DNA of 64,000 nt from Actinomycetota bacterium (GTDB lineage Bacteria; Actinomycetota; Aquicultoria; Subteraquimicrobiales; UBA9087). The stretch lies in NCBI GenBank assembly GCA_030019215.1, contig JASEEZ010000003.1, positions 12,109 through 76,108 on the forward strand. The letters are read 5' to 3'. Below, one piece after another: positions 9,560-56,577 of the stretch (position 1 is its first letter; every line of letters begins with the position of its first letter). The translations under genes were made by a program, and so were the position numbers. The notes beneath the pieces are model-generated. The model was not told where the DNA came from. It was given only the letters and a program-made list of their open reading frames with translations, and did no database searches.

Positions 9560-9656
9560 ATTTTAGTTGGTAGTTAGGAGTCGGGAGTCGGTAGTAAATA
9601 AAATCTTTATAAATCTTTTCACTCCAGACTACCCACTAACAAACTCCCGACTAAAT

Positions 9657-10973: not shown

Positions 10974-11217
10974 AATATGTGCGGGGCGAATCCCACCCCC
11001 TCCGCTACCCCGCCTGTGGCAGGGTGCCCTGAGCTTAGCTGAAGGGCGAGATAGCAATTAGTTAGTAGTGGGGGAGTTGGGGGCCGGAGTTAATGAAAAA
11101 TGGAGAACGAAAAATGAAAAATTACAACGTAAAATTAAGAATGTTTTTAAATCCTTAAATCATTCTTCATTTTTAGTTCTTAATTCTGACTGTCAACTAA
11201 CAGACTCTTGATTAACT

Positions 11218-11351: not shown

Positions 11352-11433
11352 TAGAGTGTAGAGTGGGGACGCTGTAGAGTAGAGTGGGGACGCTGTAGAG
11401 TGGGGACGCTGGTTGCAACTGTTGCAGTCGTCC
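11352..11433 (+). repeat. three tandem TAGAG(TAGAG)TGGGGACGCTG repeats ending in an imperfect GGGACG...CGTCCC hairpin (REP/subterminal-hairpin-like), directly 5' of the Y1 transposase gene
   Basis: Tandem copies read at 11352-11374, 11375-11395 and 11396-11411. Hairpin GGGACGCTGGTTGCAACTGTTGCAGTCGTCCC at 11404-11433. Confidence 0.6.
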
Positions 11434-11456
11434 CTTAATTCTGTTAAATTCAGCCT

Positions 11457-12446
11457 ATGCCCAGACAACCAAGACTTGAAGCCCCAGGACTTATCTATCA
11501 CGTAATTGCACGAGGAATAGAGAGAAGAGAGATCTTTACTGACAAGGATGATTACACCTTCTTTCTTACCTGTTTTGGCGAGATTTTAGTTGAGACTCAT
11601 GCAGATTGTCTTGCTTTCTCTCTTCTTCCCAATCACTTTCACCTTCTGTTTAGATCAGGGGAAATTCCTCTCTCAACCATTATGAGACGACTTCTCACCA
11701 GATATGCTTTATTCTTCAACCGAAGACACAGACGATCTGGTCATCTTTTCCAAAACCGCTACAAATCAATCATTTGTCAAGAAGACCCCTATCTTCTCGA
11801 GCTTGTGCGCTATATTCATCTTAATCCCATACGAGCAGGCATTACAAAATCCTTGAGTGAGCTTAATTCCTATTCCTATACAGGACATAGCGCTCTCTTA
11901 GGAAGAGCACGCTTTGGCTGGTACCTGCCAGAAGCTATTCTTGGCTACTTTGGCAAAACTCAAAAGAAAGCTATCAAGAAATACTTAGAATTCATTGGTG
12001 ATGGTCTATCAATGGGAACAAATCCCACATATACTGGCAACAGCCCTAAGAGCTCTTTTGGTTATCCAAAGAGATATCCCAAGAAAAAGCAGATCTCTGA
12101 TGGGAGAATCCTTGGAGATGAAGATTTTGTCCGCGCTCTACAGGAGTGTGAAGAGAAAGAAAAGGAGAAAGGGAGTAAAGTGAGTATAGAAGAGTTGACT
12201 AAACGAGTAGCTAAGACATATTCTTTGGAGCCTGAGCAAATTAGAGGGAGGGGGAGAGCAAAACAATTAAGAGAAGCGAGAACTTTAGTAGCTTACGTTG
12301 CCACTACTTACCTAGGTTTTTCTTTTGCCGAAATAGCTCGTTACCTGAAAGTACATCGCTCAACATCAGCTAGAATGTTAGAGCGAGGCAAAGAGATTGC
12401 AAAGGGTATCGATGCTAAGCAGTGGATAATAGCAAAGGAGAAGTAA
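11457..12446 (+). mobile_element. IS200/IS605-type (Y1, HUH) transposase domain fused to a DnaA-C-terminal-like HTH domain (RAYT-like)
   Basis: 329 aa. N-terminus 'LIYHVIARGIERREIF...LLPNHFHLLF...FQNRY' (HUH plus catalytic Tyr, the Transposase_17 pattern). C-terminus 'QLREARTLVAYVATTYLGFSFAEIARYLKVHRSTSARMLERG' is DnaA_C-like. It is flanked by REP-like repeats. Confidence 0.7.
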
Positions 12447-12535
12447 TGCAACAAATACAACGAACGTCCCTTATCCCTTTTATCCCTTCAACGAACGTCC
12501 CTTATCCCTCTTATCCCTTATAGTTGCAAAGATTT
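12447..12535 (+). repeat. two direct CAACGAACGTCCCTTATCCCT(Y)TTATCCCTT repeats bracketed by TGCAAC...GTTGCAA, 3' of the Y1 transposase gene; CGTCCC is inverted relative to the upstream GGGACG repeats
   Basis: Direct repeats read at 12458-12489 and 12490-12521. TTGCAA motifs at both ends mirror the GTTGCAAC of the upstream hairpin. Confidence 0.55.
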
Positions 12536-14425: not shown

Positions 14426-14697
14426 TTGACCGTGCTAGGCGGGGAGTCAGCGGTGCCCTGTACCCGCAATCCGCTACAGCGGGGCCGAATTCCTGCCTGA
14501 GGCACTGGCTGTGAGGACCGTTCTTGGGCAAGGGATGCTGAAGGCCGGGTCCTGTGCGACGGAGGCTTGCGAACCCCGTCAGGTCCGGAAGGAAGCAGCG
14601 GTAAGCAAATACCTCCGGGTGCCGCAGACAAACCTGGCTGGAGTCACCTACCCGAGTCACGCTCGTGGTTTTGATGTCGAGGGCAGGTGCACGGTCA
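14426..14697 (+). ncRNA. ffs: signal recognition particle RNA, long (Bacillus-type) form with Alu domain
   Basis: The 5' 'GACCGTGCTAGGCGGGGAGTCAGCGGTGCCCTGTACCCGCAATCCGC' is near-identical to B. subtilis scRNA. The universally conserved domain IV 'GTCAGGTCCGGAAGGAAGCAGC' is at about 14576-14597. The 3' 'GGTGCACGGTC' pairs with the 5' GACCGTGC. It is followed by a T-rich tract. Confidence 0.85.
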
Positions 14698-19883: not shown

Positions 19884-21632
19884 GTGTCTTACATCTCTCT
19901 GTATAGAAAATATCGTCCTCAGACTTTTGGGGAAGTCGTTGGCCAGACCCACATCACTCAGACCCTGGCCAACGCGGTCAAGCAGAATCGCTTCTCCCAT
20001 GCCTATCTCTTTGCCGGACCCCGAGGAACGGGAAAGACAACCACCGCCAGAATCTTTGCCAAGGCACTCAACTGTGCCAAGGGGCCGACTCCCACCCCTT
20101 GCAATGAATGTGGAATCTGTTTGCAGATAATCGGGGGAAACTCCATCGACGTTCTGGAGATAGATGCCGCCTCCAACCGGGGCATAGATGAGATCAGGGA
20201 TCTAAGGGAAAAGATCCGCTTCACCCCGACGGAGGCTCGATACAAGATGTATATAATAGACGAAGTTCACATGCTTACCCCCGAGGCCTTTAACGCTCTC
20301 TTGAAGACGCTGGAGGAACCGCCTGAATGCGTAGTCTTCGTCCTGGCGACGACGGAACCTCATAAGGTTCTCCCCACGATCCTCTCTCGCTGTCAACGCT
20401 TTGATTTCAGGCGTATCCCGATTTCGGATGCGGTGGGATACCTCCACCAGATTGCGAAGGCCGAGGGAATAGTCATCGACGAGACTGTTCTTCCCTTGAT
20501 TGCCAGGCAGGCTCAAGGCTCCTTGAGAGACGCCATTGGGGTTCTGGAGCAGTTGTCCTCCTTTGCCGGTGAGAAGATCGGCCTGGATGAGGTTATCTCC
20601 CTTCTGGGCATGGTCGAAATTGAACTCCTGTTCGAGATCGTGGATATAGTGAGCAGGAGGGATACGGCCGGCGCCCTTTTCTTCGTGGAGAGGTTGATGG
20701 GGAGCGCGAGAGACATCCGGCAGTTCACGAAGGAACTCATAGACCACCTCAGAAATCTCTTCGTCATCCGGAGCACCGATGAACCGGCGGGGATGATAGA
20801 TGCTACCCCTGATGCCCTGGCCAGGATGGAGGCCCAGGCCTGCTCTTTCCAGCCATCCGAGATAATGAGATTCATGGATATTCTGACGGAAACTCACGGC
20901 GAGATGCGCTGGAGTCCAGATGCCAAGCTTCTCCTGGAGATGGCCCTGGTCAAGATGACAAAGCCGGAGGTGGATGCGTCTCTTGATGGGTTGCTGTATA
21001 GGATCGATGAGCTAGAGAGAAAGATCGAGGGACGAGGGACGAGGGACGAAAGTCAGAAGATAAAGAAGTTAGAGGCGAAAGAAATGGGGGAGGTGCACGA
21101 GGTTGAAGAGGTAAAAGAGGGAGAAGGCGCGAAGAAGGGGAAGGTGGAAGCGGTAAAGGGTACAGCGGGTGGAAAAAGAGATGAAGCGACACCCAGCCAG
21201 CAACCAGTTATCGGAAAGCAGGCTACAGGTCAAAAAATAGATATTGCTAGGGTGAGAAGAGCCTGGCCGGTGATTTTGAATCAGGTTAAAGAGAAGAAGA
21301 TATCCACTTACGCCCTCCTTCTGGAGTGCCAACCCTCCTCGGTAACGGAGAAGACCATCGTCCTGGAGTTCAGCGAGAGGGCCTCCTTTCATTTGCAGGA
21401 GATGGAAAAATCTCGCAATTTGAAGGTGCTCTTGCAATCTTTGAAAAAGGTATTGGGCATGGATGTGGATGTCGAGTGCACTTTGAGAGAGGATGAGGGA
21501 CCGAAGTCTCGGGAGACATCCCTCCGGGAAGAAAAGTTAACCGAGGAGCCGGTCGAGCCCCATATCGTCAAGCTGGTTCAGGATAGTTTCGGAGCAGAGA
21601 TAATCGAGGAAGTTGAATTCACAGAAGACTGA
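19884..21632 (+). CDS. dnaX: DNA polymerase III subunit gamma/tau
   Basis: GTG start. 'YRKYRPQTFGEVVGQTHI', Walker A 'GPRGTGKTT', and clamp-loader sensor motifs. Low-complexity acidic linker. Confidence 0.9.
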   Translation: MSYISLYRKYRPQTFGEVVGQTHITQTLANAVKQNRFSHAYLFAGPRGTGKTTTARIFAKALNCAKGPTPTPCNECGICLQIIGGNSIDVLEIDAASNRGIDEIRDLREKIRFTPTEARYKMYIIDEVHMLTPEAFNALLKTLEEPPECVVFVLATTEPHKVLPTILSRCQRFDFRRIPISDAVGYLHQIAKAEGIVIDETVLPLIARQAQGSLRDAIGVLEQLSSFAGEKIGLDEVISLLGMVEIELLFEIVDIVSRRDTAGALFFVERLMGSARDIRQFTKELIDHLRNLFVIRSTDEPAGMIDATPDALARMEAQACSFQPSEIMRFMDILTETHGEMRWSPDAKLLLEMALVKMTKPEVDASLDGLLYRIDELERKIEGRGTRDESQKIKKLEAKEMGEVHEVEEVKEGEGAKKGKVEAVKGTAGGKRDEATPSQQPVIGKQATGQKIDIARVRRAWPVILNQVKEKKISTYALLLECQPSSVTEKTIVLEFSERASFHLQEMEKSRNLKVLLQSLKKVLGMDVDVECTLREDEGPKSRETSLREEKLTEEPVEPHIVKLVQDSFGAEIIEEVEFTED

Positions 21633-21954
21633 AGACCAGCGGCCAGAGGTCAGGGGTCAAGAGTCAGGGGGCACGGGTCAAGGGATAAAGAACCAGGGAC
21701 GAAGGGTGAGAGAAGCAAAGAACGAAGGGTGAGAGAAATATAGGAACAGGGGGATTAACTTCCTGGTTTCCTAGCTTCCCGGGTTTCCTTGTTTTCATCC
21801 GACAGCCGACATCCATCATCCGACGAGGAATTTTCTCTAAGCTCTGAGCTCTTGGCTCTAAGCTAGCTGACAACTGTCATCTGTGAACTGTCAGCTATTT
21901 CGAATAACTAATAACGAATGGGCATGAAAATTTATGAGTAAAGGAGCGATCTCG

Positions 21955-22263
21955 ATGGATTTGGGAAAGATAATGAAGCAAGCACAGAAAGTACAGAAAG
22001 AGATGGTAAAGGCTCAGGAAGAACTGGCCGGCGAGCGCGTGGAGGCCAGCAGCGGTGGTGGGATGGTCAAGGTGATAGTCAATGGCAAGCAAGAGATCCT
22101 GGAGGTGAAGATAAACCCCGACGCCGTGAATCCCGAGGACGTGGAGATGTTAGAGGACATGGTTCTGGTGGCCGCCAACGAGGCTCTCGGCGAGTCTCGC
22201 GAGTTGGCATCGCGGAAGCTGAGCAAATTGACGGGGGGATTAAATCTCCCCGGGTTGGTGTAG
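21955..22263 (+). CDS. ybaB: nucleoid-associated protein YbaB/EbfC
   Basis: 'MDLGKIMKQAQKVQKEMVKAQEEL...GGGMVKVIVNGKQEILEVKI'. AAAGGAG sits 8 nt before ATG 21955. Confidence 0.85.
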   Translation: MDLGKIMKQAQKVQKEMVKAQEELAGERVEASSGGGMVKVIVNGKQEILEVKINPDAVNPEDVEMLEDMVLVAANEALGESRELASRKLSKLTGGLNLPGLV

Positions 22264-22974: not shown

Positions 22975-23152
22975 CCAGTACCGTTACAACTAATTTTTCC
23001 TGAGAAATCTAAGCTTTTGTTCAATCTGTTTATTAAAGAAGCGTTCGCTGATATTAAGCCCGTTAGAATTTTTAATGTAAATGCAGTTACTAACATCAAA
23101 CAAAGTAAATTTAATTCTAACAGGCTGAAGCGACAAGTTGTAACGGTACCAG
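22975..23152. repeat. MITE-like element, copy 2 (termini CCAGTACCGTTACAAC / GTTGTAACGGTACCAG, AT-rich interior)
   Basis: Inverted termini at 22975-22990 and 23137-23152 share the CCGTTACAAC core with the element at 6638-6756. Confidence 0.6.
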
Positions 23153-23290
23153 TTATTTTACTATCCAACAAGCTAGATTGCCGTTAATCCATCGAATCCA
23201 GCCACTCGAGGCAAAAAGAGAGCGCTCGGTGGTTTTTGTCTGTATAATCCAGGAAGTATTTTGACGAGCTGAGTTGTGTGAGGTGAGGAG

Positions 23291-23863
23291 ATGAAGGATT
23301 TAGTTGAAATTCGCTGGCACGCAAGGGGTGGCCAGGGTGCCGTCACCGCGGCCAAGTTTTTGGCCGAAACGGCCCTGGCTGGAGGCAAGCACGTTCAAGC
23401 ATTTCCCGAGTATGGGCCGGAAAGAATGGGCGCTCCCATTCAGGCCTTCACTCGCCTTTCAACCGAGCCAATCCGCACCTACTGTAGTATCGTTAATCCG
23501 AACGTGGTCACGGTTTTGGACCTCACCCTCCTCGACGTCGTCGATGTCGCTCAAGGATTTTTGCCCGATAGTGTACTTATCATCAATACTTCGGATAAAC
23601 CTTCCAGCTTGAGGGGAAAGCTTAAATTAAAGGGCGGAAAGGTGTTTACGGTTGATGCCTCGACCATCGCCCTGGAGGAACTGGGGAAGCCCATTCCGAA
23701 TACTCCCATGCTTGGAGCGCTCATAAAGGTCACAGGGATTTTAGGTTTGGGGGAAGTGGTCAAACATTTCGAAGAAGCCTTTGAGGGTAAATTCTCCCCC
23801 AGGGTAATAGAGGGAAACATTAAGGCAATAAAGCGCGCCTTCGAGGAGGTGAAGGGCGAGTGA
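23291..23863 (+). CDS. porG: pyruvate:ferredoxin (2-oxoacid) oxidoreductase gamma subunit
   Basis: 'WHARGGQGAVTAAKFLAETA' gamma-subunit signature. First gene of a four-gene por cluster. Confidence 0.8.
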   Translation: MKDLVEIRWHARGGQGAVTAAKFLAETALAGGKHVQAFPEYGPERMGAPIQAFTRLSTEPIRTYCSIVNPNVVTVLDLTLLDVVDVAQGFLPDSVLIINTSDKPSSLRGKLKLKGGKVFTVDASTIALEELGKPIPNTPMLGALIKVTGILGLGEVVKHFEEAFEGKFSPRVIEGNIKAIKRAFEEVKGE

Positions 23864-24150
23864 AGGAGTGGAGAGCGGAAAAGTTGATGCCTGGAGCGCT
23901 TATCCCGGTTGGTGGGACTGCTCGCCAGTATAAGACGGGTGGCTGGCGCTCGGAGCATCCCGTTTGGGATGAGAGGGCTTGCAAGCAGTGCTTTTTATGC
24001 TGGATTTACTGCCCCGATGGATCGATCAAAGTTAGGGATGGGAAGGTAATTGGGATAGATTACGATTATTGTAAAGGTTGTGGAATTTGCGCCAATGAAT
24101 GCCCAGCAGATGCTATAAAGATGGCCGAGGGAGGTGAACCCAATGGCTAA
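23860..24150 (+). CDS. porD: pyruvate:ferredoxin oxidoreductase delta subunit (2x[4Fe-4S] ferredoxin)
   Basis: 96 aa. 'CKQCFLCWIYCP' and 'CKGCGICANECP' clusters. Confidence 0.8.
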   Translation: MKEWRAEKLMPGALIPVGGTARQYKTGGWRSEHPVWDERACKQCFLCWIYCPDGSIKVRDGKVIGIDYDYCKGCGICANECPADAIKMAEGGEPNG

Positions 24151-25351
24151 GTTGACCGAAAAAATCGTGGCCATAACGGGAAATGCCGCCGTGGCTCAAG
24201 CGATGAGGCAAATTAATCCCGATGTGGTCGCCGCTTACCCCATCACCCCTCAGACCGATATCGCTGAGACCTTTGCCGAATTCGTGGCCGATGGCTTAGT
24301 GGACACGGAATACGTGACCGTGGAGAGCGAACACTCCGCGATGAGCGCCTGCGTTGGGGCATCCGCTGCTGGAGCGCGGGTTATGACGGCCACGTCTTCA
24401 CAGGGGTTGGCCTTGATGTGGGAGATTCTCTACATCGCTGCGGGGATGCGCCTCCCCATAACTATGACCAATGTCAATCGGTGTTTGAGTGCCCCGATCA
24501 ACATCCATTGTGACCATTCCGACAGCATGGGGGCCAGGGATTCGGGCTGGATTCAAATCTACTCCGAGAACGCCCAAGAAGCCTACGACAACGTCATCCA
24601 GGCTATCAGGATAGCGGAGCATAAGTCGGTCTTGCTCCCGGTCATGGTAAACATGGATGGCTTCATCGTCAGCCACAGCATCGAGCGAGTGGAGCTCCTG
24701 GACGATGAGGTGGTCAAGAGATTTGTTGGCGAGTACAAGCCGGTCTATCCTTTGCTCGATGTCGAAAATCCGGTGACCCATGGTCCCTTTGATGGTTTGG
24801 GTGGCTTTTATTTCGAGCACAAGAAAGCTCAGATCGAGGCCATCGAGAGATCCAGGAAGGTCGTCTTGGACGTCGCCGACGAGTTTAAGAGGATATCCGG
24901 TCGAGAGTATGGCTGTTTCGAGCCCTATCGCTTAGACGATGCCGAGGTCGCCCTCGTGGTTTTAAATTCGGCTGCGGGAACTAGCAAGTGTGTTGTCGAT
25001 GCGATGCGAGAAGAAGGATACCCAGTTGGCATCCTAAAACTGAGGGTGTTCAGGCCGTTTCTCGCACGGGAGTTGAGTGAGGCTCTGAAGCACTTAAAGG
25101 CCGTGGCCATACTCGAGCGGGCGACCTCTCCGGGTTCATTTGGTCCTCTCTATGCGGAGATAAGATCGGCCCTTTACGATTTGGAGGCCAGGCCCAAAAT
25201 GGTTAATTTGATCTATGGATTGGGCGGAAGAGAGTTTAGACCCGAGCACGCCAAGGAGGCTTTTGGGGTTTGTCTCAAAGTGGCCCAAACGAAGAGGGTT
25301 GAAAAACCCCTCGGTTACTTGGGGCTCAAGGAAGTGGAGGTGATCTCATGA
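24134..25351 (+). CDS. porA: pyruvate:ferredoxin oxidoreductase alpha subunit
   Basis: 405 aa. 'ITGNAAVAQAMRQINPDVVAAYPITPQT' N-terminus typical of POR alpha. Confidence 0.8.
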   Translation: MNPMAKLTEKIVAITGNAAVAQAMRQINPDVVAAYPITPQTDIAETFAEFVADGLVDTEYVTVESEHSAMSACVGASAAGARVMTATSSQGLALMWEILYIAAGMRLPITMTNVNRCLSAPINIHCDHSDSMGARDSGWIQIYSENAQEAYDNVIQAIRIAEHKSVLLPVMVNMDGFIVSHSIERVELLDDEVVKRFVGEYKPVYPLLDVENPVTHGPFDGLGGFYFEHKKAQIEAIERSRKVVLDVADEFKRISGREYGCFEPYRLDDAEVALVVLNSAAGTSKCVVDAMREEGYPVGILKLRVFRPFLARELSEALKHLKAVAILERATSPGSFGPLYAEIRSALYDLEARPKMVNLIYGLGGREFRPEHAKEAFGVCLKVAQTKRVEKPLGYLGLKEVEVIS

Positions 25352-26268
25352 AAATCAAGGAGCTTTCCGCGACAAAAGAGAGATTCACCTCCGGCCACAG
25401 GCTTTGTGCCGGTTGCGGGGCTGGCATCGTGGTGAGACAGGTCCTGATGGCGACCGACAAGCCGGTCGTCGTCTGCTGCCCAACCGGGTGTCTGGAGGTC
25501 TCCTCGACCATTTATCCCTCGACCGCCTGGGATACTCCTTACATTCACAACGCTTTCGAGAACGCGGCGGCGACGCTGAGCGGGGTGGAATCCGCGTACC
25601 GGTTTTTGAGGAAGAAGGGGAGGATCGACAGGGAAATCAGATTCGTCGCCTTCGGCGGCGATGGTGGCACGTACGACATCGGCCTGCAGGCTCTTTCGGG
25701 AGCTCTTGAGCGTGGTCACGGGATGGTCTACGTCTGCTACGACAACGGCGCTTACATGAATACGGGGATTCAACGTTCTAGCGCCACCCCTCGAGGGGCT
25801 TGGACGACCACCTCTCCGGTGGGTAAAGTCATCCCCGGAAAGACCCAGGACAGAAAAGACCTAACTGCCTGTGTGGCCGCGCACGATATTCCATACGTGG
25901 CGCAAGCTTCACCCAGCCACTGGCGCGACCTCGTTACCAAGGCGCGAAAGGCCTTCGAGGTCGATGGCCCGGCTTTCTTGAACATTCTCTCTCCTTGTCC
26001 TCGAGGCTGGAGGTATCCGGGGAGCCAATCCATCGCCGTGGCCAGATTGGCCGTCGAGACCTGCTTCTGGCCACTTTTTGAGGTTGAGGATGGGCGGTGG
26101 AAGCTCAATTATAAGCCCAAGGAGAAGAAACCCCTGGTAGAATGGTTGAAACCACAGGGGAGGTTCAAGCATCTCTTTGCTCCCGAAAACGAGCATATCA
26201 TCGAGGAGCAACAAGCCAAGGTGGATAAAGACTGGGAAAGACTCCTCAGGCTCTGCGGGGAAGCTTAA
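25348..26268 (+). CDS. porB: pyruvate:ferredoxin oxidoreductase beta subunit (TPP-binding)
   Basis: 'CAGCG...' N-terminus and TPP motif 'GGDGGTYDIG'. Confidence 0.8.
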   Translation: MKIKELSATKERFTSGHRLCAGCGAGIVVRQVLMATDKPVVVCCPTGCLEVSSTIYPSTAWDTPYIHNAFENAAATLSGVESAYRFLRKKGRIDREIRFVAFGGDGGTYDIGLQALSGALERGHGMVYVCYDNGAYMNTGIQRSSATPRGAWTTTSPVGKVIPGKTQDRKDLTACVAAHDIPYVAQASPSHWRDLVTKARKAFEVDGPAFLNILSPCPRGWRYPGSQSIAVARLAVETCFWPLFEVEDGRWKLNYKPKEKKPLVEWLKPQGRFKHLFAPENEHIIEEQQAKVDKDWERLLRLCGEA

Positions 26269-26296
26269 AAGACTCGCTTGTTTAAAGGAGATTGTA

Positions 26297-26334
26297 CCCC
26301 CTCGATAGAATTTTTCGAGGGGGTTTTCTTTTAT
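26297..26334 (+). terminator. intrinsic terminator after the por operon
   Basis: CCCCCTCGA-loop-TCGAGGGGG followed by TTTTCTTTTAT. Confidence 0.7.
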
Positions 26335-26394
26335 CCCGGTTTTTAAAAGACGCGATTTTGCCGATGAAATGAGTGGTGGCCGGAGGAGACAAAG

Positions 26395-28662
26395 ATGGTC
26401 CACGTAAACCTACGAGTGAAGTTGGGTTTAACCATCGCGCTTATAATCCTGTTAGTGGCCGGCGTTATGGTCTACTTCTTTGTGCAACAACAGAAGGCAC
26501 ATTGGCTGGAGAGGGAGAAAGAGAGCAACCATCTGATGACGTCATTTGTTGTGCATCACATCGAGGATTCCCTCGCCGATGGCGAGCTTGATGAAGAAGA
26601 AAGAGGACGTCTCCTGGAGTACATCGAGGCGATGGGGGAAAAGATTGTGCACTTCCGAGTGGTGGACGAAAACGCCAGGATTTTAGTATCGCTGGATGCT
26701 CAAGGGGTGGGTGAGGCGGACGAGGACAAATGCGTCTCGAAGGCGTTGAGGGAAAGAAAAACCATCGAACACATCTGGGCCTTTCACCGCGGAAAAGGAG
26801 AGGAAGGTGAGATAGTCGAGACCTTTGGCTTCTGGGATAGGAGGACCCGGGCTCTGGAGATCGTCGTGCCCTATTTCTCCGGAGGGCGGTTGGCGGGAGC
26901 TGTTCACATCTATACCAGCCTCGTGGAGCTGACCGCAATCATTGACAGGGTCTATTTACAGACCACTCTCTTGGCCACCGCAACTTACGTTCTCTGTTTT
27001 CTATTTCTCTGGATTGGACTCTCAAGATTCGTCTATCGCCCCATTGACATACTGAAGAGCGCCGCCGATCAGGTTGCTCGGGGGGATTTCACCAAGCGGG
27101 CAAGGATCGTCTCGAGAGACGAGTTCGGTGATCTCTTTGTCACCTTCAACAGGATGACCGAGACTCTCTCCTCGCTCATAGCCCAGGTTGAGGCGGCTCA
27201 TCGGCAGACGAAATCTTCTGTGGCCAGCGTGGGGCGGGCGCTGGGCTCCACCCTTGATCGGAGTGAACTGCTGAGGACCATCTTGAATGCGGCCATCGGC
27301 GTCTCCGGTGCCCAGACCGGTTCGGTGATGCTCCTCGACGAGAAAAGCGGGAATTTGGTCATCGAGGCGGCCCATGGTCTGGATGAAAAGGTTGTCCGGA
27401 CCACCAGCCAGAAGCTGGGACAGGGAATCGCCGGCTGGGTGGCCAAAGAGGGGGAGCCCCTGCTTCTCATCGATGGGGTTAAAGATCAGCGCTTTGAGCC
27501 CATAAAGGCCAGGGAGGAGATCAAGGATGCCATCTGCGTTCCCCTGAGAGTCAAGGACAAGATCATCGGGGTGCTGAACGTCAACAACAAGGTGGGGAAG
27601 GAGACCTTTGACCATGATGATCTTGAGTTCCTGGCGGCCCTGGCCAATGAGGCGGCTGTGGCTCTTGAAAATGCCGAGCTTTATCAGGACATCCGCAGGA
27701 ATTTCTTCAGTACCATTCGGGCGTTGGCCGAGGCGGTGGATGCCAAGGATCCCTATACGCGGGGCCACTCGGAGCGGGTGACCCAATATGCCCTGGCGAT
27801 TGCTCAAAAGTTGGGCCTTTTCAAATCTGAAGTGGAGGCCGTCTAGGTCGCTGCCATCCTGCACGATATCGGCAAAATCGGCATCGGTGAGGAAGTTCTC
27901 TTAAAACCGGGCAAATTCAGTCTCGACGAGATGCTTATAATGCAAACCCACCCCCTCATCGGAGTGAACATTCTTGCTCCCATAGAGTTTCCCTGGGATA
28001 TCCTGCCAATAGTTCGCCATCATCACGAGCGCTTTGATGGTCTGGGTTATCCCGCTGGTTTGAAGGGGGGAAGGATTCCCCTGGGGGCTCGCATCCTGGC
28101 TGTTGCCGATGCCTTTGAGGCGATGATTTCGGCGAGGCCTTATAGGAAAGCTCGGCCGCCTGAAGATGCCCTGGAAGAACTCCAAAGGAATGCCGGGACT
28201 CAGTTTGACCCCTCAATGGTTAAGGCATTCGCTGCTGCCTTTAAGAAGGGGAAGGTCGAGTTGCCCGGTGAGCCCGAGGCAAGGGCGGGGATTTTGACCG
28301 AGGGGGCCAAGAAGGAAGCGGTTAAGGAGGTCTTCGCCGGTATGGCCAATTCTCTTCTTAAACAGTATGCAAGGATAAGCGGCCCCCGTCTAAAGAGAAA
28401 ATTAGAGGGAGAGCTGCGAGAGGCTTTTAGGGAGAGGGGTCTCGATGTGAGCCGGGGAAAAGTCGGAATAGGCGAGGTGTCGGGCCTGTCATTTAAGCAG
28501 GAGATATCCCTTTACAGGGATTTCCTTCAGCGGGAGGCCTCTCTCATTGAGCGAGCTGTGGGAAGGCACATTCTGGAATATTTCCTCTCCGTCAGCCTTG
28601 GGGATTTGAGCGAAAGATTGAAACCTCTGGCTGAGGAGTACGGTTTCAATAAGCCCATCTGA
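26395..28662 (+). pseudogene. sensor HAMP-GAF-HD-GYP c-di-GMP phosphodiesterase interrupted by an in-frame TAG at 27844-27846 (inside the HD-GYP domain), plus a C-terminal domain of unknown function
   Basis: Same frame on both sides of the TAG. Upstream: 'DAKDPYTRGHSERVTQYA...SEVEAV*'. Downstream: 'VAAILHDIGKIGIGEE...HHERFDGLGYPAGL', the HD and GYP motifs. TAG is used as a normal stop elsewhere (pheA, ybaB, recR). Confidence 0.7.
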
Positions 28663-28762
28663 GCTTGCTCCCCACTACCCCTGTTGCTAAAATAGGATAA
28701 GCCTGCCCGCCATTGGCTTCCCGATGTTCATCGGGATGGCAGGCGGGCTGTCTGGAGGCAGA

Positions 28763-30004
28763 ATGGGAATAATTGTTCAGAAATATGGTGGCACATCCGT
28801 GGCCAATGTGGAGCGGATAAGGGGCGTAGCCAAACGCGTCGTTAAGACTAAGGAAGACGGGAACTCTGTGGTGGTTGTGGTCTCGGCTCTGGGGGAGACC
28901 ACCGACGAGCTTCTAAGGCTAGCCCACCAAATCTCGCCGCATCCTCCCGAGCGGGAACTGGACATGCTTCTGGCCACCGGTGAGCAAGTTTCGGTGGCCC
29001 TTCTGGCCATGGCTATTCAGGCTCTGGGCCACGATGCGATATCGTTTACAGGTCCACAGGTGGGGATAGTGACCGATGCTGTCCACACCAAAGCCAAGAT
29101 AATCGATATTAAATCCGAGCGCATTTTGGACGAGATCGAGAGGGGTAGAATTGTTATCGTCGCCGGTTTTCAGGGGGTGACCGTCGATCAGGACATTACC
29201 ACTCTGGGAAGGGGGGGATCGGATACCACGGCCGTCGCTCTGGCTGCGAAGCTCAAGGCAGATGTTTGTGAGATCTACACCGATGTGGGGGGAGTGCACA
29301 GTGCCGATCCCAAGATCGTGTCGGATGCCCGGAAGTTACCCATCATCTCCTACGATGAGATGCTGGAGATGTCGGCCACAGGTGCCAAGGTGATGCAGCT
29401 CAGAGCGGTGGAATACGGTAAAAATTACGGAGTTCTTATTCATGTCAGATCGAGTTTTTCCGATGAACCGGGGACGCTGATCAAGGAGGGGGAGGAGATG
29501 CTGGAGAGGCCGATCATAAGTGGCATCACCTATGATGTGGGTGAAGCTAAGGTGACCATCTTGGATGTTCCGGACAGGCCCGGCGTGGCGGCAGGGGTCT
29601 TCAGAGCGCTGGCCGATGCCAACGTGAATGTGGATATGATCATCCAAAACGTGAGCGAGAAAGGTTATACCGATATCTCCTTCACCGTGGCCAAGGAGGA
29701 TCTCCGCAGGGCGAGCGAAGTTATGAAAAGAATAGTCAGTGAGCTGGGTGCTCGCGGTTTGACATGCGATGAGGAGATAGCCAAAGTTTCTCTGATCGGT
29801 GCCGGAATGAAGACTCACCCCGGAGTGGCCGCTGACATGTTTGGTGTTCTGGCGGAAAAAAACATAAACATCGAAATGATTAGCACTTCCTCGATCAAGA
29901 TTTCTTGTGTGATCAGAGCAAGGGAAGTGGAGAGGGCGGTCAGAGCCGTCCATGAAAAATTTGATTTAAGCAAGGAGCAAGTGAAGCAGGTGGCGGGGGA
30001 CTAA
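28763..30004 (+). CDS. lysC: aspartate kinase with C-terminal ACT domains
   Basis: '[19 protein letters not shown]' and '[16 protein letters not shown]'. Two ACT domains. Confidence 0.9.
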
Positions 30005-30135
30005 GCTAAGGGACGAAGGGCGAAGGACGAGGGACGAAGATTTTTTCAGCCGTCATCCGACATCCGACGGCACAAGGCACAAGGCACCTGACATCCGTCA
30101 TCCGACAAGAACTAGAAATGAGTGGTGAAGAAAAA

Positions 30136-31137
30136 ATGAAAGAATATAATGTGGCGATCGTGGGAGCCACCGGGGTGGTTGGTGAAGAGATGAGGAAAAT
30201 TCTCGAAGAAAGGAACTTCCCCGTTGCCAACTTAAAACTCCTGGCTTCCGCAAGATCCGCCGGGCGTAGGCTAACCTTTAGAAGAACGGGCATTCTCGTT
30301 GAGGAGCTTTCAGCGGGCTCCTTCAAGGGAGTTGATATCGCCCTGTTTTCAGCCGGTGCCACGGTGAGCAGGGAGTTCGCCCCTCTCGCGGTGAAGGCAG
30401 GGGCTCTGGTCATCGACAACAGCAGTGCTTTCAGAATGGAGCCTGACGTCCCCCTCGTGGTTCCCGAGGTCAACCCGGAGAAGGCGAGGGAACACAAAGG
30501 GATCATCGCCAACCCGAACTGCTCCACCATTCAGATGGTGATGGTCCTCAAACCGCTCCACGCTAGGTCGCGGATAAGGCGGGTGGTGGTCTCCACCTAT
30601 CAGGCTGTTTCTGGTACAGGCAAGGGGGCCGTACGGGAGTTGCTCGGACAGTCGAAGGCGGTTTTGTCCGGGGAGCCGGCAAGGGTGGAGGTTTACCCTC
30701 ATCAAATAGCCTTCAATCTCCTCCCGCATATCGATGTATTCCTAGAGAACGCCTACACCAAGGAGGAGATGAAGATGGTCAACGAGACCAGGAAGATAAT
30801 GGGCGATTCAGGGATGAGGATCACTGCCACCTGTGTCAGGGTTCCGGTTTTCGTCTCCCACTCGGAATCAGTGAATATTGAAACGGAGAAAAAGATAACC
30901 GCCGAGGAGGCTAGGGAGATTCTTGAGAAGGCTCCCGGGGTTGAGGTCATCGACGATCTCGAATCTTGCGCCTACCCCTTGCCCATTTTTGCTGAGGGGA
31001 AGGACCTCTGCTATGTGGGAAGGATTCGTGAGGATGATTCCATCGAAAATGGACTCAATCTGTGGGTCGTCGCTGACAATCTGCGCAAGGGAGCAGCTCT
31101 TAATGCTGTTCAAATAGCTGAACTTTCGATAAAATAG
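30136..31137 (+). CDS. asd: aspartate-semialdehyde dehydrogenase
   Basis: 'MKEYNVAIVGATGVVGEEM'. Catalytic 'IANPNCSTIQMV'. Confidence 0.9.
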   Translation: MKEYNVAIVGATGVVGEEMRKILEERNFPVANLKLLASARSAGRRLTFRRTGILVEELSAGSFKGVDIALFSAGATVSREFAPLAVKAGALVIDNSSAFRMEPDVPLVVPEVNPEKAREHKGIIANPNCSTIQMVMVLKPLHARSRIRRVVVSTYQAVSGTGKGAVRELLGQSKAVLSGEPARVEVYPHQIAFNLLPHIDVFLENAYTKEEMKMVNETRKIMGDSGMRITATCVRVPVFVSHSESVNIETEKKITAEEAREILEKAPGVEVIDDLESCAYPLPIFAEGKDLCYVGRIREDDSIENGLNLWVVADNLRKGAALNAVQIAELSIK

Positions 31138-31235
31138 TTTTGGGGACAGCCTTCAGGGCGGGCCCTCGGGCAGCGGGAAAAACCTGCGGGACCTTTGCGA
31201 GTGGAACCGCAGGTTTTTAAATACAGAGGTTAAAC

Positions 31236-32144
31236 ATGGATAAAGAGGAACGTTTCCAAAAGGGAGAAAAGACGTGCTGGGTTAGTATTTGGGTAAACCT
31301 GGCCCTGACCATTTTTAAGGCATTGGCCGGTATCCTGGGAAGGAGCCAAGCCATGACGGCGGATGCCGCTCACTCCTTCTCCGATATCTGTAGCGATGTG
31401 GTGGCGCTGGTCAGCCTCAAAATAGCTAAAAAACCGGTGGATGAACGCCATCCCTATGGCCATGGAAAGATAGAGGCGATAGCCGCGGCGGCGGTGGGGG
31501 GGATGGTGGCCCTGGTAGGCGTGACCATTTTGTGGATGGCCGTGCAGACCATTCCGGGCAGGGTCATTCGCATTCCCGGGGCAATCGCTCTGGTAGCTGC
31601 GCTTATATCCATACTGGTTAAGGAGGCTTTATTTCAATACACGGTGAGGGTGGGTAAGCGCTTGGGCAGCCCGGTCGTGGTAGCCAATGCTTGGCATCAT
31701 CGTTCTGATGCTTTCTCATCGGTGGTGGCTCTGGTGGGTATCACAGGAGCTCGGATGGGCTATCCCATCTTGGACCCCCTGACGGGAGTCGCGGTTTCGC
31801 TGTTCGTGGTGAAGGTGGCCTATAATATAGTTTTGGGTGCATTTCATCAGCTGATGGACACCTCCCCCGGGGTAGAGGTGTTGGCTAGGATCACGCAGAT
31901 TGCCGAGGAGGTTCCGGGCGTCGAGCACGTTCACGAGATCAAAGCCCGTCGCACGGGGCAATACCTACTCGTGGATTTAAAGTTGGAGGTCGACCCCGGT
32001 ACCAGCGTGGCTATGGGACACACCATCGCCGGCGAGGTCAAACACAAGATCGTGAAGAACATGGGCGATGTGGCGGATGTCATGGTCCACATCAATCCCC
32101 ATAAACATCATCCTCCCCACCGTCATCCGGGAACCACCGATTGA
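31236..32144 (+). CDS. cation diffusion facilitator family transporter (CzcD/FieF-like)
   Basis: 6 TM helices with 'HSFSDICSDVVALVS' and 'HHRSDAFSSVVALVG' metal-site motifs. C-terminal cytoplasmic domain. His-rich tail. Confidence 0.8.
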   Translation: MDKEERFQKGEKTCWVSIWVNLALTIFKALAGILGRSQAMTADAAHSFSDICSDVVALVSLKIAKKPVDERHPYGHGKIEAIAAAAVGGMVALVGVTILWMAVQTIPGRVIRIPGAIALVAALISILVKEALFQYTVRVGKRLGSPVVVANAWHHRSDAFSSVVALVGITGARMGYPILDPLTGVAVSLFVVKVAYNIVLGAFHQLMDTSPGVEVLARITQIAEEVPGVEHVHEIKARRTGQYLLVDLKLEVDPGTSVAMGHTIAGEVKHKIVKNMGDVADVMVHINPHKHHPPHRHPGTTD

Positions 32145-32186
32145 TTTCCTTTCCCCGTCGGAACCTAGACTCGGTGTTAAGTTAGG

Positions 32187-32436
32187 CTCTTCTCCAAAAA
32201 TGGTGGGCAGAAATTGCCAAGGCGAGATAAAGTGCGGAGAGAACTTTAGGATTCAAGGATCCAAGTGGTCAAGGGGTCTAGTGAAAGTCTTGCAAAATAA
32301 ATCACCTGAATCCTAGGACCCCAGAATCCTTGAATCCTTCTGTAAGAAATTTTTGCCTCCTCGAATCCTTTCATGAACCACTCTTTTGGATGAGAACGAG
32401 ATTAATAATTTTATCCACTAAAAATGGGGAAGAACC
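32187..32436. repeat. ~230 bp repeat element, copy 1 (termini CTCTTCTCCAAAAATGGTGGG ... TTATCCACTAAAAATGGGGAAGAACC; interior GAATCC word repeats)
   Basis: Aligns end-to-end with 58488-58691, with shared blocks 'GAGAACTTTAGGATTCA', 'CAAGGGGTC.AGTGAAA' and 'ACTCTTTTG'. It abuts the start of the helicase gene. Confidence 0.65.
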
Positions 32437-32457
32437 TTGAGTTATAATTTAAGAGGA

Positions 32458-34731
32458 ATGGACCCATTGGCGTTTGTGGACTCGATCAAGAGCAATCCCA
32501 CTTACAAGGGGCAGATCGTCCACGTGGAGAGAATTCCTCCCAGAGAAGCAATCTTCGGAAAGCCGGAGCACCCTCTGCCTTCCCGAATCAAACAGCGCTT
32601 GGCTGATCTGGGGATCACTGAATTATATGGTCACCAGGCTAGGGCCATCGACCTCGTCCGTCAAGGGAAGAACGTGATCGTAGTCACTGGCACGGCGAGC
32701 GGCAAGAGTCTTTGCTACAATGTTCCCGTCTTGGAGGCCATTTTGGAGAACGCCAAGAACACCGCCTTCTATCTCTTTCCCACCAAGGCTTTGGCCCAGG
32801 ATCAACTCAGGGTTCTTGGGGAGTTTGATTTGGCCCCTCTGGTTTCGGTTACCTACGACGGAGATACCCCCGGCGATGAAAGAGTTTGGATTAGGCGCAA
32901 TGCCAATGTGGTCCTCACCAATCCAGACATGCTCCACTATGGGATCTTGCCCAATCACAGGATGTGGGGGAATTTTCTTCTCAATCTCAGGTACGTCGTT
33001 GTGGACGAGGCACATGTCTTTCGCGGTGTCTTCGGTTCCAACGTGGCCAACCTGATCAGGCGTCTGAGGAGGCTCTGCAAGCACTACCGCTCTAACCCTC
33101 AGTTCACCCTGTCCTCGGCGACCGTGGCCAATTCCGGAGAGCATGCCCGAAGGCTGACCGGACTTGAAGTCGAGGTCGTTGACGAGGATTGTTCCCCCCA
33201 CGGAGAAAAGTTCTTCCTATTCTGGAATCCACCCTATCTCGATGAGGCCAAGGAGAGGCGTCGGAGTTCCAACTCGGAGGCCGCTCACCTTTTCGCCTCG
33301 CTCGTTAAGAGTGGCGTCAGGAACATCACCTTCAGCAAATCTCGCCAGACGGCGGAGCTCGTCTTCAAATACGCTCGCGAAGAGCTTAAGGGCAGTCCGG
33401 AACTGTTGGATAGGATGAGGTCGTACCGAGCTGGATATCTGGCCCCCGAGCGCCGGGAGATCGAGCGAGGGCTCTTCGGTGGAGAGCTTTTGGGGGTGAG
33501 CTCCACCAATGCACTGGAGCTTGGGGTGGATATCGGCACTTTGGATGCCTGTGTGATCAATGGATATCCGGGAACCATCGCTTCCACCTGGCAACAGGCT
33601 GGGAGAGCGGGCCGCAAGCGGGGAAGTTCTCTGGCCATCCTGTTGGCCCAGGATGACCCCCTGGATCAGTATTACATGAAGCACCCCGAGGCCTTCTACG
33701 GCAAGAGCTGTGAGGAGGCCATCGTGGATTTCGAGAATCCCTCCATCTTCTTCCAGCACCTTACATGTGCCGCTTGTGAACTTCCCTTAACCAAAGAGGA
33801 TGAGGAGTTCTTCGGTCGTGCCTATCCTGAAATGGTCAAATCTCTCCTCTCTCGGGGGGAGCTCATGGAGAGAAAGTCTAGGTGGTTCTGGGTGGGGCGG
33901 AGGGTTCCTGCCCAGGAGACCAACATCCGTTCCGCCTCTCGGGATGTCTACTCCATAGTCGAGCTGGAAACGGGGGCCCTTCTCGGAACCATAGACTCCA
34001 CCACCACCTTCATTTACGTCCACCCGGGGGCCATCTATCTCCATCAGGGCGATTCCTACCTGGTGGTCGATCTGGACTTGGCTGCTAAGGTTGCCTTTGT
34101 GGAGAGAGCCTGCGGCGATTACTACACTCAGCCCAGGGAAGAGACGAGTCTGGTTGTTCTGGGGGAAGATTTGCGGAGAGAAATTGGCCGGACGAGGGTC
34201 TGCTTCGGGCGAGTCGATGTCACCAGCCATGTCATCGCCTTCCAGCGAAAGCGAATCTTCACGGGTGAGGTTTTGGGGACGGAGAAGCTGGATTTGCCGC
34301 CCCAGCGCTTTAAGACGGAGGCCTTCTGGTTTACCATCCCGGATGATGTCCTCTCCCAGCTTGCCCCGAGTGAGCGGGAGCTGGCCGGGGGCATTCACGC
34401 TGTAGAACACGCCGCCATCGCTCTGCTCCCCATGTACGCGATGTGCGATAGGTGGGACATTGGCGGGGTCTCCACCCCATTCCATCCACACACGGGCTTT
34501 CCATCCATCTTCATCTACGATGGTTTTGAGGGCGGAGTAGGAATCGCTGCCCGCGGATATGATCTCTGTGAGAATCTTTTAAAGGAGACCTTGAGCCACA
34601 TCGGGGACTGCGAATGCAAGGTGGGTTGCCCTTCCTGCATCCAGTCACCCAAGTGTGGAAACTGGAATGAACCCCTGGATAAAAAGGTGGCCATCGAGAT
34701 TTTGGAGAAAATATTAGGGAGGGGTAGGTAG
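32458..34731 (+). CDS. ATP-dependent helicase of the YprA/MrfA family (DEAD/DEAH helicase plus C-terminal DUF1998 zinc-ribbon domain)
   Basis: Walker A 'GTASGKS'. 'LFPTKALAQDQ'. 'VVDEAH'. C-terminal 'CECKVGCPSCIQSPKCGNWNEPLD' (DUF1998 4-Cys). ATG 32458 aligns with the Bacillus YprA N-terminus; TTG 32437 is the alternative. Confidence 0.8.
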   Translation: MDPLAFVDSIKSNPTYKGQIVHVERIPPREAIFGKPEHPLPSRIKQRLADLGITELYGHQARAIDLVRQGKNVIVVTGTASGKSLCYNVPVLEAILENAKNTAFYLFPTKALAQDQLRVLGEFDLAPLVSVTYDGDTPGDERVWIRRNANVVLTNPDMLHYGILPNHRMWGNFLLNLRYVVVDEAHVFRGVFGSNVANLIRRLRRLCKHYRSNPQFTLSSATVANSGEHARRLTGLEVEVVDEDCSPHGEKFFLFWNPPYLDEAKERRRSSNSEAAHLFASLVKSGVRNITFSKSRQTAELVFKYAREELKGSPELLDRMRSYRAGYLAPERREIERGLFGGELLGVSSTNALELGVDIGTLDACVINGYPGTIASTWQQAGRAGRKRGSSLAILLAQDDPLDQYYMKHPEAFYGKSCEEAIVDFENPSIFFQHLTCAACELPLTKEDEEFFGRAYPEMVKSLLSRGELMERKSRWFWVGRRVPAQETNIRSASRDVYSIVELETGALLGTIDSTTTFIYVHPGAIYLHQGDSYLVVDLDLAAKVAFVERACGDYYTQPREETSLVVLGEDLRREIGRTRVCFGRVDVTSHVIAFQRKRIFTGEVLGTEKLDLPPQRFKTEAFWFTIPDDVLSQLAPSERELAGGIHAVEHAAIALLPMYAMCDRWDIGGVSTPFHPHTGFPSIFIYDGFEGGVGIAARGYDLCENLLKETLSHIGDCECKVGCPSCIQSPKCGNWNEPLDKKVAIEILEKILGRGR

Positions 34732-56576: not shown

Positions 56577-56577
56577 A

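Follow-up and report, generated by a model that had tools for sequence, protein, structure and literature searches.

Arrays of heptanucleotide repeats have been reported for decades from cyanobacteria, Beggiatoaceae, Bacteroidetes, Xanthomonas and Geobacter, and their origin, the reason for their 7-nt unit and their function remain unsettled. Here we analyze arrays of this kind in a 64,000-nt stretch (hereafter the window) of contig JASEEZ010000003.1, which belongs to a deep-branching, uncultured lineage of Actinomycetota to which the phenomenon is thereby extended. The arrays fill intergenic spacers such as the 21633-21933 region between dnaX (19884-21632) and ybaB (21934-22263), and comparison with relatives shows that they have a 7-nt periodicity, gain or lose exact units, undergo fast tract replacement between conserved ends, are copied as modules between spacers, frequently form hairpin-capable pairs and serve as the arms of a gene cassette. 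They are of a known, mechanistically unexplained kind; the lineage is new to it, and the words differ from those described.

Several described repeat families bear comparison with these arrays. Repetitive extragenic palindromic (REP) sequences, bacterial interspersed mosaic elements (BIMEs) and REP doublets forming hairpins (REPINs) are intergenic, often intra-operonic mosaics of motifs that occur in both orientations and include hairpin-forming doublets. The REP unit is an imperfect palindrome of 20-40 nt with a 5′ GTAG, and a role as a hairpin or spacer element in RNA has been demonstrated for REP. The arrays of the window are likewise intergenic, intra-operonic, mosaic, present in both orientations and hairpin-forming, and the window holds a Y1 gene resembling those of REP-associated tyrosine transposases (RAYTs). 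Unlike REP, their building block is a 7-nt tandem unit without a 20-40 nt palindrome starting in GTAG, and the Y1 gene and the heptamer modules have no demonstrated link.

The short tandemly repeated repetitive (STRR) elements of cyanobacteria are 7-bp repeats that form hairpins between hupS and hupL; their function is unknown, and roles in RNA stability or translational coupling have been proposed (PMC2670836). STRR also occur inside an RNA gene, according to the title of Vioque 1997 as cited in PMC2858038. The arrays of the window share with them the 7-bp unit, the imperfect tandem arrangement, the many intergenic sites, including sites within operons as at hupS-hupL, and the capacity to form hairpins. 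They differ in that many word families are chained in each spacer in an apparent 5′-to-3′ order, that modules are shared across spacers and species, and that arrays act as gene-cassette arms. Since the host is an uncultured actinobacterial lineage and not a heterocystous cyanobacterium, we call the arrays STRR-like rather than STRR in the strict sense.

Heptameric simple sequence repeats (SSRs) are over-represented in bacteria, for which polymerase slippage has been suggested (PMC4692102). Mixed heptamer assemblages and duplicated repeat-filled spacers occur in intergenic regions of Microcystis and Bacteroidetes (PMC4679880), and Geobacter metallireducens carries families of four or five heptanucleotide repeats (PMC2700814). 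The intergenic heptamer excess of the window recalls the TAACTGA repeats of Beggiatoaceae, Cyanobacteria and Bacteroidetes, the GGGAATC repeats of Xanthomonas and the repeats of G. metallireducens (PMC4679880, PMC4692102, PMC2700814), as do the 2-6 copies per set, the mixing of heptamers, the near-identical repeat-filled spacers at different loci and the variation in length and sequence between close relatives. The words themselves differ, and one dominant word per genome has been described there against about ten families in 64 kb here. Moreover, TAACTGA sets lie within a few nt of start codons, whereas the arrays of the window end about 20-40 nt upstream, before the ribosome-binding site (RBS). 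With the SSRs of contingency loci, which underlie phase variation by slipped-strand mispairing, the arrays have unit-length indels in common; unlike them, they lie outside the promoters and reading frames of genes for surface or virulence factors, and a 7-nt unit between a stop codon and an RBS has no obvious on/off consequence.

Results

Intergenic spacers of the window have a seven-base period

Self-identity of the non-coding DNA of the window reached 0.315 at lag 7, 0.304 at lag 14 and 0.297 at lag 21 over a background of about 0.26; the coding DNA showed a 3-nt period alone. When segments with at least 15 of 21 matches at a given lag were scored as periodic, lag 7 covered 830 of the 7,219 non-coding nt, compared to a mean of 1.8 and a maximum of 32 nt in 100 dinucleotide shuffles. 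Lags 4-6, 9 and 11-13 covered 0 nt, lag 10 covered 43 nt and lag 8 covered 136 nt. Tandem Repeats Finder (TRF) returned more than 30 arrays of period 7 or 14, nearly all in spacers, with 2.6-6.3 copies and 67-100% match, made of imperfect head-to-tail units of exactly 7 nt. These results bear out a first-pass annotation that had described the 21633-21930 region and a series of other spacers as tandem oligonucleotide words, for most of the spacers it listed. The larC-larB spacer (1859-2050), which it had included in the same pattern, gave no lag-7 signal.

Each array consists of 2-8 imperfect copies of one heptamer. The units include GGACGAA, CATCCGA, AACCAGG, CTCTAAG, AGCAGAG, GCTGGAA, AGTCGGG, GGTCAGG and GGCACAA, and fall into about ten families, each found at 2-7 spacers within the 64 kb and on both strands, as expected from the earlier description of the spacers as concatenated imperfect words that recur at distant loci. 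Neighboring arrays often grade into each other unit by unit, as in 54068-54140, where CCAGGGT, TCAGGGA, CGAGGGA, CGAAGGA, CGAATAA, CGAGGAA and AGCAGAG succeed one another. Four of the words initially singled out were enriched in non-coding DNA relative to shuffle means, namely GGGACGAAGG (4 observed, 0.03 expected), CATCCGAC (8 and 0.14), GAACCAGG (6 and 0.32) and CTAAGCTC (6 and 0.26). The enrichment of a further one, CTGAAG, was not significant (11 observed, shuffle mean 4.9, shuffle maximum 11), and the unit proved to be a heptamer rather than a word of 6-13 nt. The GGACGA word noticed inside dnaX is indeed part of an array, which we place at 21026-21049.

One shared block is a 122-nt composite module present twice in the window, at 54062-54182 (+) and 39082-39203 (−), with 95% identity. 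Its ends show no terminal inverted repeats, target-site duplication or defined termini, which led us to reject a miniature inverted-repeat transposable element or a derivative of an insertion sequence (IS). CRISPR was set aside for want of a regular repeat-spacer layout. Adenine-specific variation of the kind made by diversity-generating retroelements (DGRs) was rejected by eye, the differences between units being ordinary and mostly transitions.

Independent Logan assemblies match positions 55425-58534 exactly and positions 23117-39072 apart from one 7-nt difference, indicating that the arrays are not an assembly artefact. Lag-7 coverage amounted to 14.7 nt/kb in the window and 1.45 nt/kb, about ten times less, in 2.1 Mb of unrelated loci from metagenome contigs that had been retrieved with the GGDEF-hydrogenase protein of the window. 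The spacer architecture can thus be called unusual in its density, although its kind has been described before (PMC2670836, PMC4692102, PMC4679880). It is not genome-specific, as had been proposed. The background coverage clustered in a handful of contigs carrying Nitrospirota, Deltaproteobacteria or Aminicenantia labels, where the architecture recurs with different words, and identical modules occur at other loci in related species (see below). In one such locus (L012), inverted AAGGCGT/ACGCCTT arrays lie on both sides of asd. Searching genome contigs with Asd gave a best match of 70% and no orthologous spacers, and returned heptamer arrays in Nitrospirota and Deltaproteobacteria contigs; an exact 22-mer of the module had no match in metagenome contigs.

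Arrays differ by whole units and tracts are replaced between relatives

Close relatives, given L numbers here, were retrieved as contigs by exact-protein look-ups. Asd, NfnB and the PF05635 protein of the window are 100% identical to proteins named 'MAG: Actinomycetota bacterium' (MAG, metagenome-assembled genome). Together the relatives form a series from near-identical strains to contigs with 75-92% identical Asd and NfnB proteins, in which indels, tract replacement and module sharing can be seen directly. At the near end of the series, contig L166 has no mismatch to 23117-39072 over 15.9 kb, and the sole difference is the loss of one AGGAACC unit at 37946. Similarly, among ten contigs carrying the P0287 cassette, whose open reading frames (ORFs) differ by at most 4 of 366 nt, the (GGGACGA)n array upstream varies between 2 and at least 6 units, with 3 or 4 in the array downstream. 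Sequences that otherwise agree therefore differ in their arrays by exact 7-nt units.

When the window is set against its relatives, ordinary spacers keep 88-100% identity; array spacers defy alignment yet are still heptameric. At 90% nucleotide identity of asd, the asd-czcD, LDcluster4-tRNA_edit and tRNA_edit-GGDEF spacers remain about 88-91% identical; the spacers between lysC and asd, between czcD and the helicase gene and downstream of the GGDEF gene cannot be aligned. The lysC-asd spacer is wholly replaced in relatives with 90-98% identical asd, and in L161 it consists throughout of about 34 consecutive heptamers. L161 and L164 are 99.93% identical over 4.3 kb, but upstream of asd they have only the last ~25 nt in common. 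Replacement respects the ends of the spacers: between the DUF2229 and BcrAD genes, the stop-proximal part is conserved between the window and L167, the interior is replaced and the final 39 nt ahead of the ATG match at 100%. Likewise, L168 retains the terminator at 61368 but has other arrays upstream of it. Species whose proteins are 85-92% identical still carry arrays in the corresponding spacers, with their sequence replaced.

Modules also recur at non-orthologous sites. Two segments of the window are 100% identical to parts of the nfnA-nfnB spacer of L168, namely 54148-54182 (L168 171-205, 35 nt) and 21871-21893 (L168 218-240, 23 nt). Longer, less exact matches join 39078-39141 to L168 146-209 on the opposite strand (64 nt, 89%) and 21867-21908 to L168 4314-4272 (43 nt, 91%). 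A composite of GGAATTA, GAAACTC and AATAACG arrays is common to the lysC-asd spacer of L161 and the DUF2229-BcrAD spacer of L167.

The relatives' short-read contigs (L161-L165, L166, L169, L175-L184) often start or stop in heptamer tracts or in shared leaders. Since contigs break within the repeats, assemblies are fragmented by such tracts and MAGs will contain too few of them. Proteins can also acquire repeat-encoded tails in this way (NfnA, DnaX). Both effects matter for MAG annotation.

Arrays mostly separate linked genes and show an apparent sense-strand polarity

Most arrays part same-strand, functionally linked genes: dnaX and ybaB(-recR), lysC and asd, nfnA and nfnB, the DUF2229/HGD-D-like gene and the BcrAD/BadFG activase gene, and the members of a tRNA cluster. 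The start of asd is probably at 30136, making the lysC-asd spacer 30005-30135. As the arrays separate genes that belong together, the description of these sites as operon boundaries is not borne out. Word families also appear to follow an order in the direction of transcription. Close to the upstream stop codon are the G-type (YCAGGGG) and A-type (GGACGAA) words, with mean relative positions of 0.11 and 0.16, respectively, and the CATCCGA-type words, or E family, lie towards the downstream start with 21 copies in sense and 1 in antisense orientation. A strand asymmetry, suggested earlier as a check, is thus present for the E words, and is weakened by two spacers with inverted modules and by the small number of independent spacers (see Discussion). 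The location between linked same-strand genes and the sense-strand polarity together suggest that the arrays are probably transcribed inside polycistronic RNAs.

Many modules are predicted to fold into long hairpins

Many modules are inverted array pairs predicted to form long imperfect hairpins well beyond shuffles. Of twelve array modules folded, from the window and from other genomes, ten had z-scores from −3 to −7.9; the other two, 30005-30117 and 37880-37996, were unstructured. In the window, the values were −5.1 for 54100-54190, where 5-bp helices alternate with 2×2 internal loops, −6.9 for the 61205-61290 hairpin, −4.95 and −3.8 for the tRNA spacers 9385-9466 and 9559-9656, and −3.0 for each of the period-8 modules 32235-32345 and 58540-58630. 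Elsewhere, a tRNA-spacer hairpin of L026 reached −5.5 and L003 −7.9. The hairpin loops are A/T-rich, often with AAATCTTTT, and T runs sit in these loops rather than in tails.

Terminator-like sites in the window were not enriched (18 and 29 found, 21.8 and 24.0 expected from shuffles), and none lies inside any array. The single canonical one that adjoins an array is at 61368-61387, so the idea that the words mark terminators did not hold up. A promoter scan of the window revealed no enrichment, and the covariance models of Rfam 15 had no match in any array spacer, even at E-values up to 0.5.

Inverted arrays bracket a PF05635 gene between nfnA and nfnB

A repeat-flanked cassette in nfnAB had been suspected of being related to the arrays, and GGACGAA/TTCGTCC arrays turned out to be its inverted arms. 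The gene at 56578-56964, between nfnA and nfnB, codes for a four-helix-bundle member of the PF05635/TIGR02436 ('23S rRNA IVS') family (Pfam E = 1.8e-13), a family named for proteins encoded by intervening sequences (IVSs) and related to the DGR protein Avd (PMC10053308). GGACGAA-type arrays at 56488-56557 and their complement at 56934-56959 are paired in both the minimum free energy and the centroid folds. The left arm is read through as a charged, repeat-encoded tail that replaces the native C-terminus of NfnA. Like an rRNA IVS with a PF05635 ORF, the cassette thus has an ORF bracketed by inverted repeats able to pair into a stem; unlike it, the cassette lies between the protein-coding nfnA and nfnB and its arms are heptamer arrays. 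That RNase III might excise the cassette stem is an analogy with the rRNA IVS only.

The cassette (56522-56960) is 92% identical at the nucleotide level to that of L170 (5816-6260), whereas identity falls to 63% in nfnA and 71.5% in nfnB on its flanks. The cassette occupies the same nfnA-nfnB junction in L170-L173, in which NfnB is only 75% identical, and is absent from the closer relatives L167 (NfnB 91%; 6712-6796) and L168 (NfnB 85%; 1-298). This distribution and the excess identity of the cassette over its flanks indicate, at the level of sequence comparison, a putatively mobile cassette transferred horizontally, with a recurrent insertion site inside the nfnAB operon.

Inverted heptamer arrays also flank more distant PF05635 homologues, 55% (L175-L184) and 69% identical (L174, from a MAG named Candidatus Aminicenantia). 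The arm words belong to the GGACGA family in L170-L173, to GGGACGA/CCCTCGT in L175-L184 and to GGCGATG/CATCGCC, together with GACGATA words, in L174, which has further heptamer hairpins in the adjoining spacers. No arrays accompany a 36%-identical homologue carried by a Pseudanabaena plasmid, which confines the link between cassette and arrays to a subfamily. Searches for PF05635 homologues across 160 unrelated loci and across plasmids yielded nothing else that was informative, and in the literature we came upon no report that connects such genes with heptamer arms.

Twelve viral or proviral IMG/VR contigs (L186-L197) carry exact arrays of (GGGACGA)3 or longer, and several of them have an inverted CCCTCGY array nearby, showing that the word is widespread outside the present lineage. 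No PF05635 gene lies within the stretches fetched on either side of the (GGGACGA)n arrays of these contigs, which argues against PF05635 as a general source of arrays.

A RAYT-like Y1 gene carries repeats of its own

In the protein encoded at 11457-12446, a Y1_Tnp (IS200-like) domain is joined to a DnaA_C helix-turn-helix. The closest NCBIfam match is NF047646, 'REP-associated tyrosine transposase', at 66.5 bits, below the cut-off of 80. Within 11358-12519, three copies of GTAGAGTGGGGACGCT and a GGGGACGCTG...CAGTCGTCCC hairpin lie upstream of the gene and two copies of a 31-nt repeat with CGTCCC lie downstream. These flanks thus combine GTAG-initiated repeats with a hairpin containing GGGGACG/CGTCCC, and only their GGGACG core is common with the commonest heptamer (A arrays). 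The flanking 16-mer and the GTAG-initiated repeats were found beside this gene only.

Discussion

We propose, with a probability of roughly 0.65, that the spacers are STRR-like hypervariable heptamer arrays assembled into BIME-like mosaics, made by slippage and exchange between spacers and probably acting as hairpin or spacer elements in RNA. Arrays would grow by replication slippage or unequal exchange; modules would spread by ectopic recombination or gene conversion, with shared flanking words providing the homology; and the complementarity of arms could be maintained by quasi-palindrome template switching. In polycistronic RNAs, the arrays may then, as hairpins or spacers, govern how the RNA is processed, how stable it is or how its genes are decoupled in translation.

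Several observations weigh against this proposal. The reason for the 7-nt unit is left unexplained by it, and both the transcription of the arrays and their role at the RNA level are what we infer from location and polarity. The polarity count represents about 4-5 independent spacers and is hence weak, reverse-orientation modules in two spacers (39017-39362 and 61131-61363) weaken a strictly strand-specific role, and since nearly all genes of the window are on one strand, the directions of transcription and replication are inseparable. Folding is uneven as well: 21633-21933, 30005-30117 and 37880-37996 fold no better than shuffles, and whole-spacer folds do not separate array spacers from others (mean z −1.5 and −0.8, Mann-Whitney p = 0.37). 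As array spacers taken as wholes are not more structured, hairpin formation is not their general function, and we dropped it as a defining trait. On the comparative side, L166 and the window may not be independent, as the single 7-nt difference between them could stem from one sampling site or population or, less probably, reflect an assembly choice, and wholesale replacement at contig ends could partly reflect chimeric joins at repeats.

A possible but less probable view is that the arrays are neutral or selfish, slippage-prone filler of unconstrained spacers, their hairpins and polarity being by-products of array origin and of selection at the stop-codon and RBS ends. Very fast turnover with wholesale tract replacement between near-identical strains, polymorphic copy number, the three array spacers without structure beyond shuffles and the entry of arrays into coding segments that tolerate them, namely the linker of dnaX and the tail of NfnA, all fit such filler. 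However, it does not readily account for arrays that stay at the same spacer positions in species with 85-92% identical proteins, for exact modules conserved across species at different loci, for the 21:1 sense bias of the E words, or for other spacers of the same genomes that remain array-free and conserved. A role as transcription terminators at operon boundaries is the least probable of the readings considered. The array tract at 61145-61363 does precede a canonical terminator (61368-61394), and long hairpins could pause RNA polymerase, but terminator-like sites are at shuffle expectation with none inside an array, T runs are in loops and not in tails, and the arrays part normally co-expressed pairs, such as nfnA/nfnB, lysC/asd, dnaX/ybaB, the activase components and the tRNAs. 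G-quadruplexes (G4s) formed in DNA or RNA by G-rich words (GGGACGA, CAGGGGT) just after stop codons would explain the period as a G3 tract plus a 4-nt loop, as developed for the GGGAATC heptamers of Xanthomonas and Nostoc (PMC4692102). The sense-strand G- and A-type arrays at the 5′ side of spacers would suit this, (GGGNNNN)n with n of at least 4 being a canonical G4 motif, and G and A arrays near 21650-21684 and 54068-54100 approach at least four G3 runs. Many G-type arrays have fewer than four such runs, however, and most families lack a G/C tract on either strand (CTCTAAG, CATCCGA, GGAACCA, AGCAGAG, AATAACG, GGAATTA) while sharing the 7-nt period, which argues against G4 formation as the general cause and makes this explanation very improbable.

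Two further alternatives invoke a protein. Arrays could be multivalent platforms for a single-strand binder with a footprint of about 7 nt, one protein per heptamer, the candidates being cold-shock or S1 OB-fold proteins or the Avd-like PF05635 protein. MacGregor suggested S1, Csp or Csr as binders of the TAACTGA repeats and pointed out that CspB occupies heptamer repeats at one protein per heptamer (PMC4679880); the strict 7-nt spacing over 2-8 units, the sense-strand polarity and the PF05635 genes bracketed by GGGACGA-type arrays in four independent contexts would agree with this. Nevertheless, many unrelated words coexist in one spacer and the words differ between genomes, which makes a single sequence-specific binder unlikely; the (GGGACGA)n arrays of the 12 IMG/VR contigs without PF05635 in the fetched stretches and the array-less distant homologue point the same way, and we regard this explanation as quite improbable. 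We also doubt, if slightly less strongly, that the RAYT-like Y1 (HUH) transposase mobilizes the modules, in the form of single-stranded hairpins, as miniature elements of the REPIN/BIME kind. The modules are dispersed, in either orientation, hairpin-forming, mosaic and intra-operonic, the Y1_Tnp-DnaA_C protein finds its best match among REP-associated tyrosine transposases, and the flanks of its gene share the GGGACG core. Yet the match is below the curated cut-off (66.5 against 80 bits), the flanking 16-mer is restricted to that gene, the modules have no REP-type palindrome with a 5′ GTAG, the 122-nt copy has no defined termini, and slippage accounts for unit indels without a transposase.

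More speculatively, the array hairpins might be the arms and relics of an undescribed class of small mobile cassettes, whose 'loaded' form carries an Avd-like PF05635 gene between (GGGACGA)n/(TCGTCCC)n arms and whose 'empty' modules are non-autonomous derivatives that remodel spacers. The loaded form would move between genomes and re-insert at the same intra-operon junction, mobilized through single-stranded hairpin intermediates and the RAYT-like Y1-DnaA_C protein, or through an RNA and reverse-transcriptase route. We consider this unlikely; if true, it would provide a concrete generating machinery for the long-unexplained heptamer repeats of bacteria. The relation between cassette and arms and the RAYT-like gene are testable leads, not conclusions. 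The account of slippage and inter-spacer exchange set out above stands as our preferred reading.

Features of the window

The coordinates of the arrays and associated elements are collected in Table 1.

Table 1. Heptamer arrays and associated elements in the window.
Feature	Position	Strand	Basis
GGTCAGG-type array, ~6 units, immediately after the dnaX stop codon	21636-21684	+	TRF period 7/14, lag-7 run
TTCCTGG-type array, reverse complement of the AACCAGG word	21760-21794	+	TRF, sequence
CATCCGA-type array (E family)	21795-21825	+	
CTCTAAG-type array (C family), matches 54149-54182 at 88%	21834-21864	+	
CTGTCAN array, then CGAATAA array	21865-21920	+	TRF
Perfect (CGAGGGA) ×3.4 array in the part of dnaX that encodes the linker joining domain III to DnaX_C	21026-21049	+	
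GGACGAA-type array ×4 (A family) after the lysC stop codon	30009-30040	+	
CATCCGA/GGCACAA/CATCCGA arrays, ending upstream of the asd RBS	30045-30108	+	
CCAGNNN arrays grading into (AACCAGG)n, then CATCCGAC	37886-37990	+	
Inverted copy of the 122-nt composite module (G-A-B-loop-C arrays)	39082-39203	−	
122-nt module: CCAGGGT, GGACGAA and AGCAGAG arrays, loop CAAAAGATTTTT, CTCTAAG array	54062-54182	+	
Predicted hairpin, AGCAGAG arm paired with CTCTAAG arm	54100-54190	+	fold
GGAACCA array, then CATCCGA array, upstream of ATG	54183-54240	+	
PF05635 cassette left arm: GGACGAA/GAAAAGC arrays	56488-56557	+	
PF05635/TIGR02436 gene	56578-56964	+	
PF05635 cassette right arm: TTCGTCC array, reverse complement of the A word	56934-56959	−	
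Nested inverted arrays after the response-regulator gene: CTTAGAG, AGTCGGG, CCAGCTT/GCTGGAG, CCCGACT, GCTGGAA, CCTGGCC	61145-61363	+	
Canonical intrinsic terminator TATCCCTCA...TGAGGGATA, then T7, beside the array tract	61368-61394	+	
Hairpin in tRNA-Ser/tRNA-Ser spacer, AGTCGGN/NCCGACT arms, A/T-rich loop with AAATCTTTT	9393-9447	+	
Hairpin in tRNA-Ser/tRNA-Arg spacer, AGTNNNN heptamers and complements	9562-9655	+	
AATGAAA and ATTCTTA arrays in tRNA-Ser(cga)/tRNA-Ser(gga) spacer	11092-11187	+	
Period-8 variant, inverted GGATTCAA/TTGAATCC arrays, hairpin	32235-32345	+	
Period-8 inverted arrays GGATTCAG.../GAATCCTC...	58540-58630	+	
larC-larB spacer: irregular CTGAAG/CTTCAG words about an A/T-rich center, no lag-7 periodicity	1859-2050		

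Both period-8 modules lie in leaders of about 250 nt, 32187-32436 and 58489-58691, that are homologous to each other (88-95% identical in blocks) and precede a DEAD/MrfA-type helicase gene and a GAF-domain gene, respectively. In relatives, the helicase leader is swapped for different arrays.

Within the tRNA cluster, the final 28 nt of tRNA-Arg(acg) occur a second time exactly 150 nt downstream (9705-9732 and 9883-9910), and the segment between the copies is rich in G5/C5 palindromes; the duplication could represent a scar left by integration (att) or a second, degenerate tRNA. Directly after two tRNA-Ser genes, a 41-nt segment starting with CCGCCAATATGTGCGGGGC... (9248-9288 and 10965-11005) is 90% identical between the two copies and forms a conserved trailer.

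The response-regulator gene 60499-61130 seems to be split over two reading frames into a receiver-domain ORF (60499-60945) and a second ORF (60834-61130), and its orthologue in L168 is an intact 210-aa protein with receiver and GerE domains; a frameshift, a pseudogene or a sequencing error could be the cause. Finally, the gene at 36074-37879 codes for an unusual fusion of ferredoxin-like 4Fe-4S domains, the C-terminal domain of the Fe-only-hydrogenase large subunit and a GGDEF diguanylate cyclase, which is conserved in relatives and has best matches of only 44% identity in metagenome contigs, and a large bacterial signal recognition particle RNA containing the Alu domain is found at 14430-14694 (209 bits).

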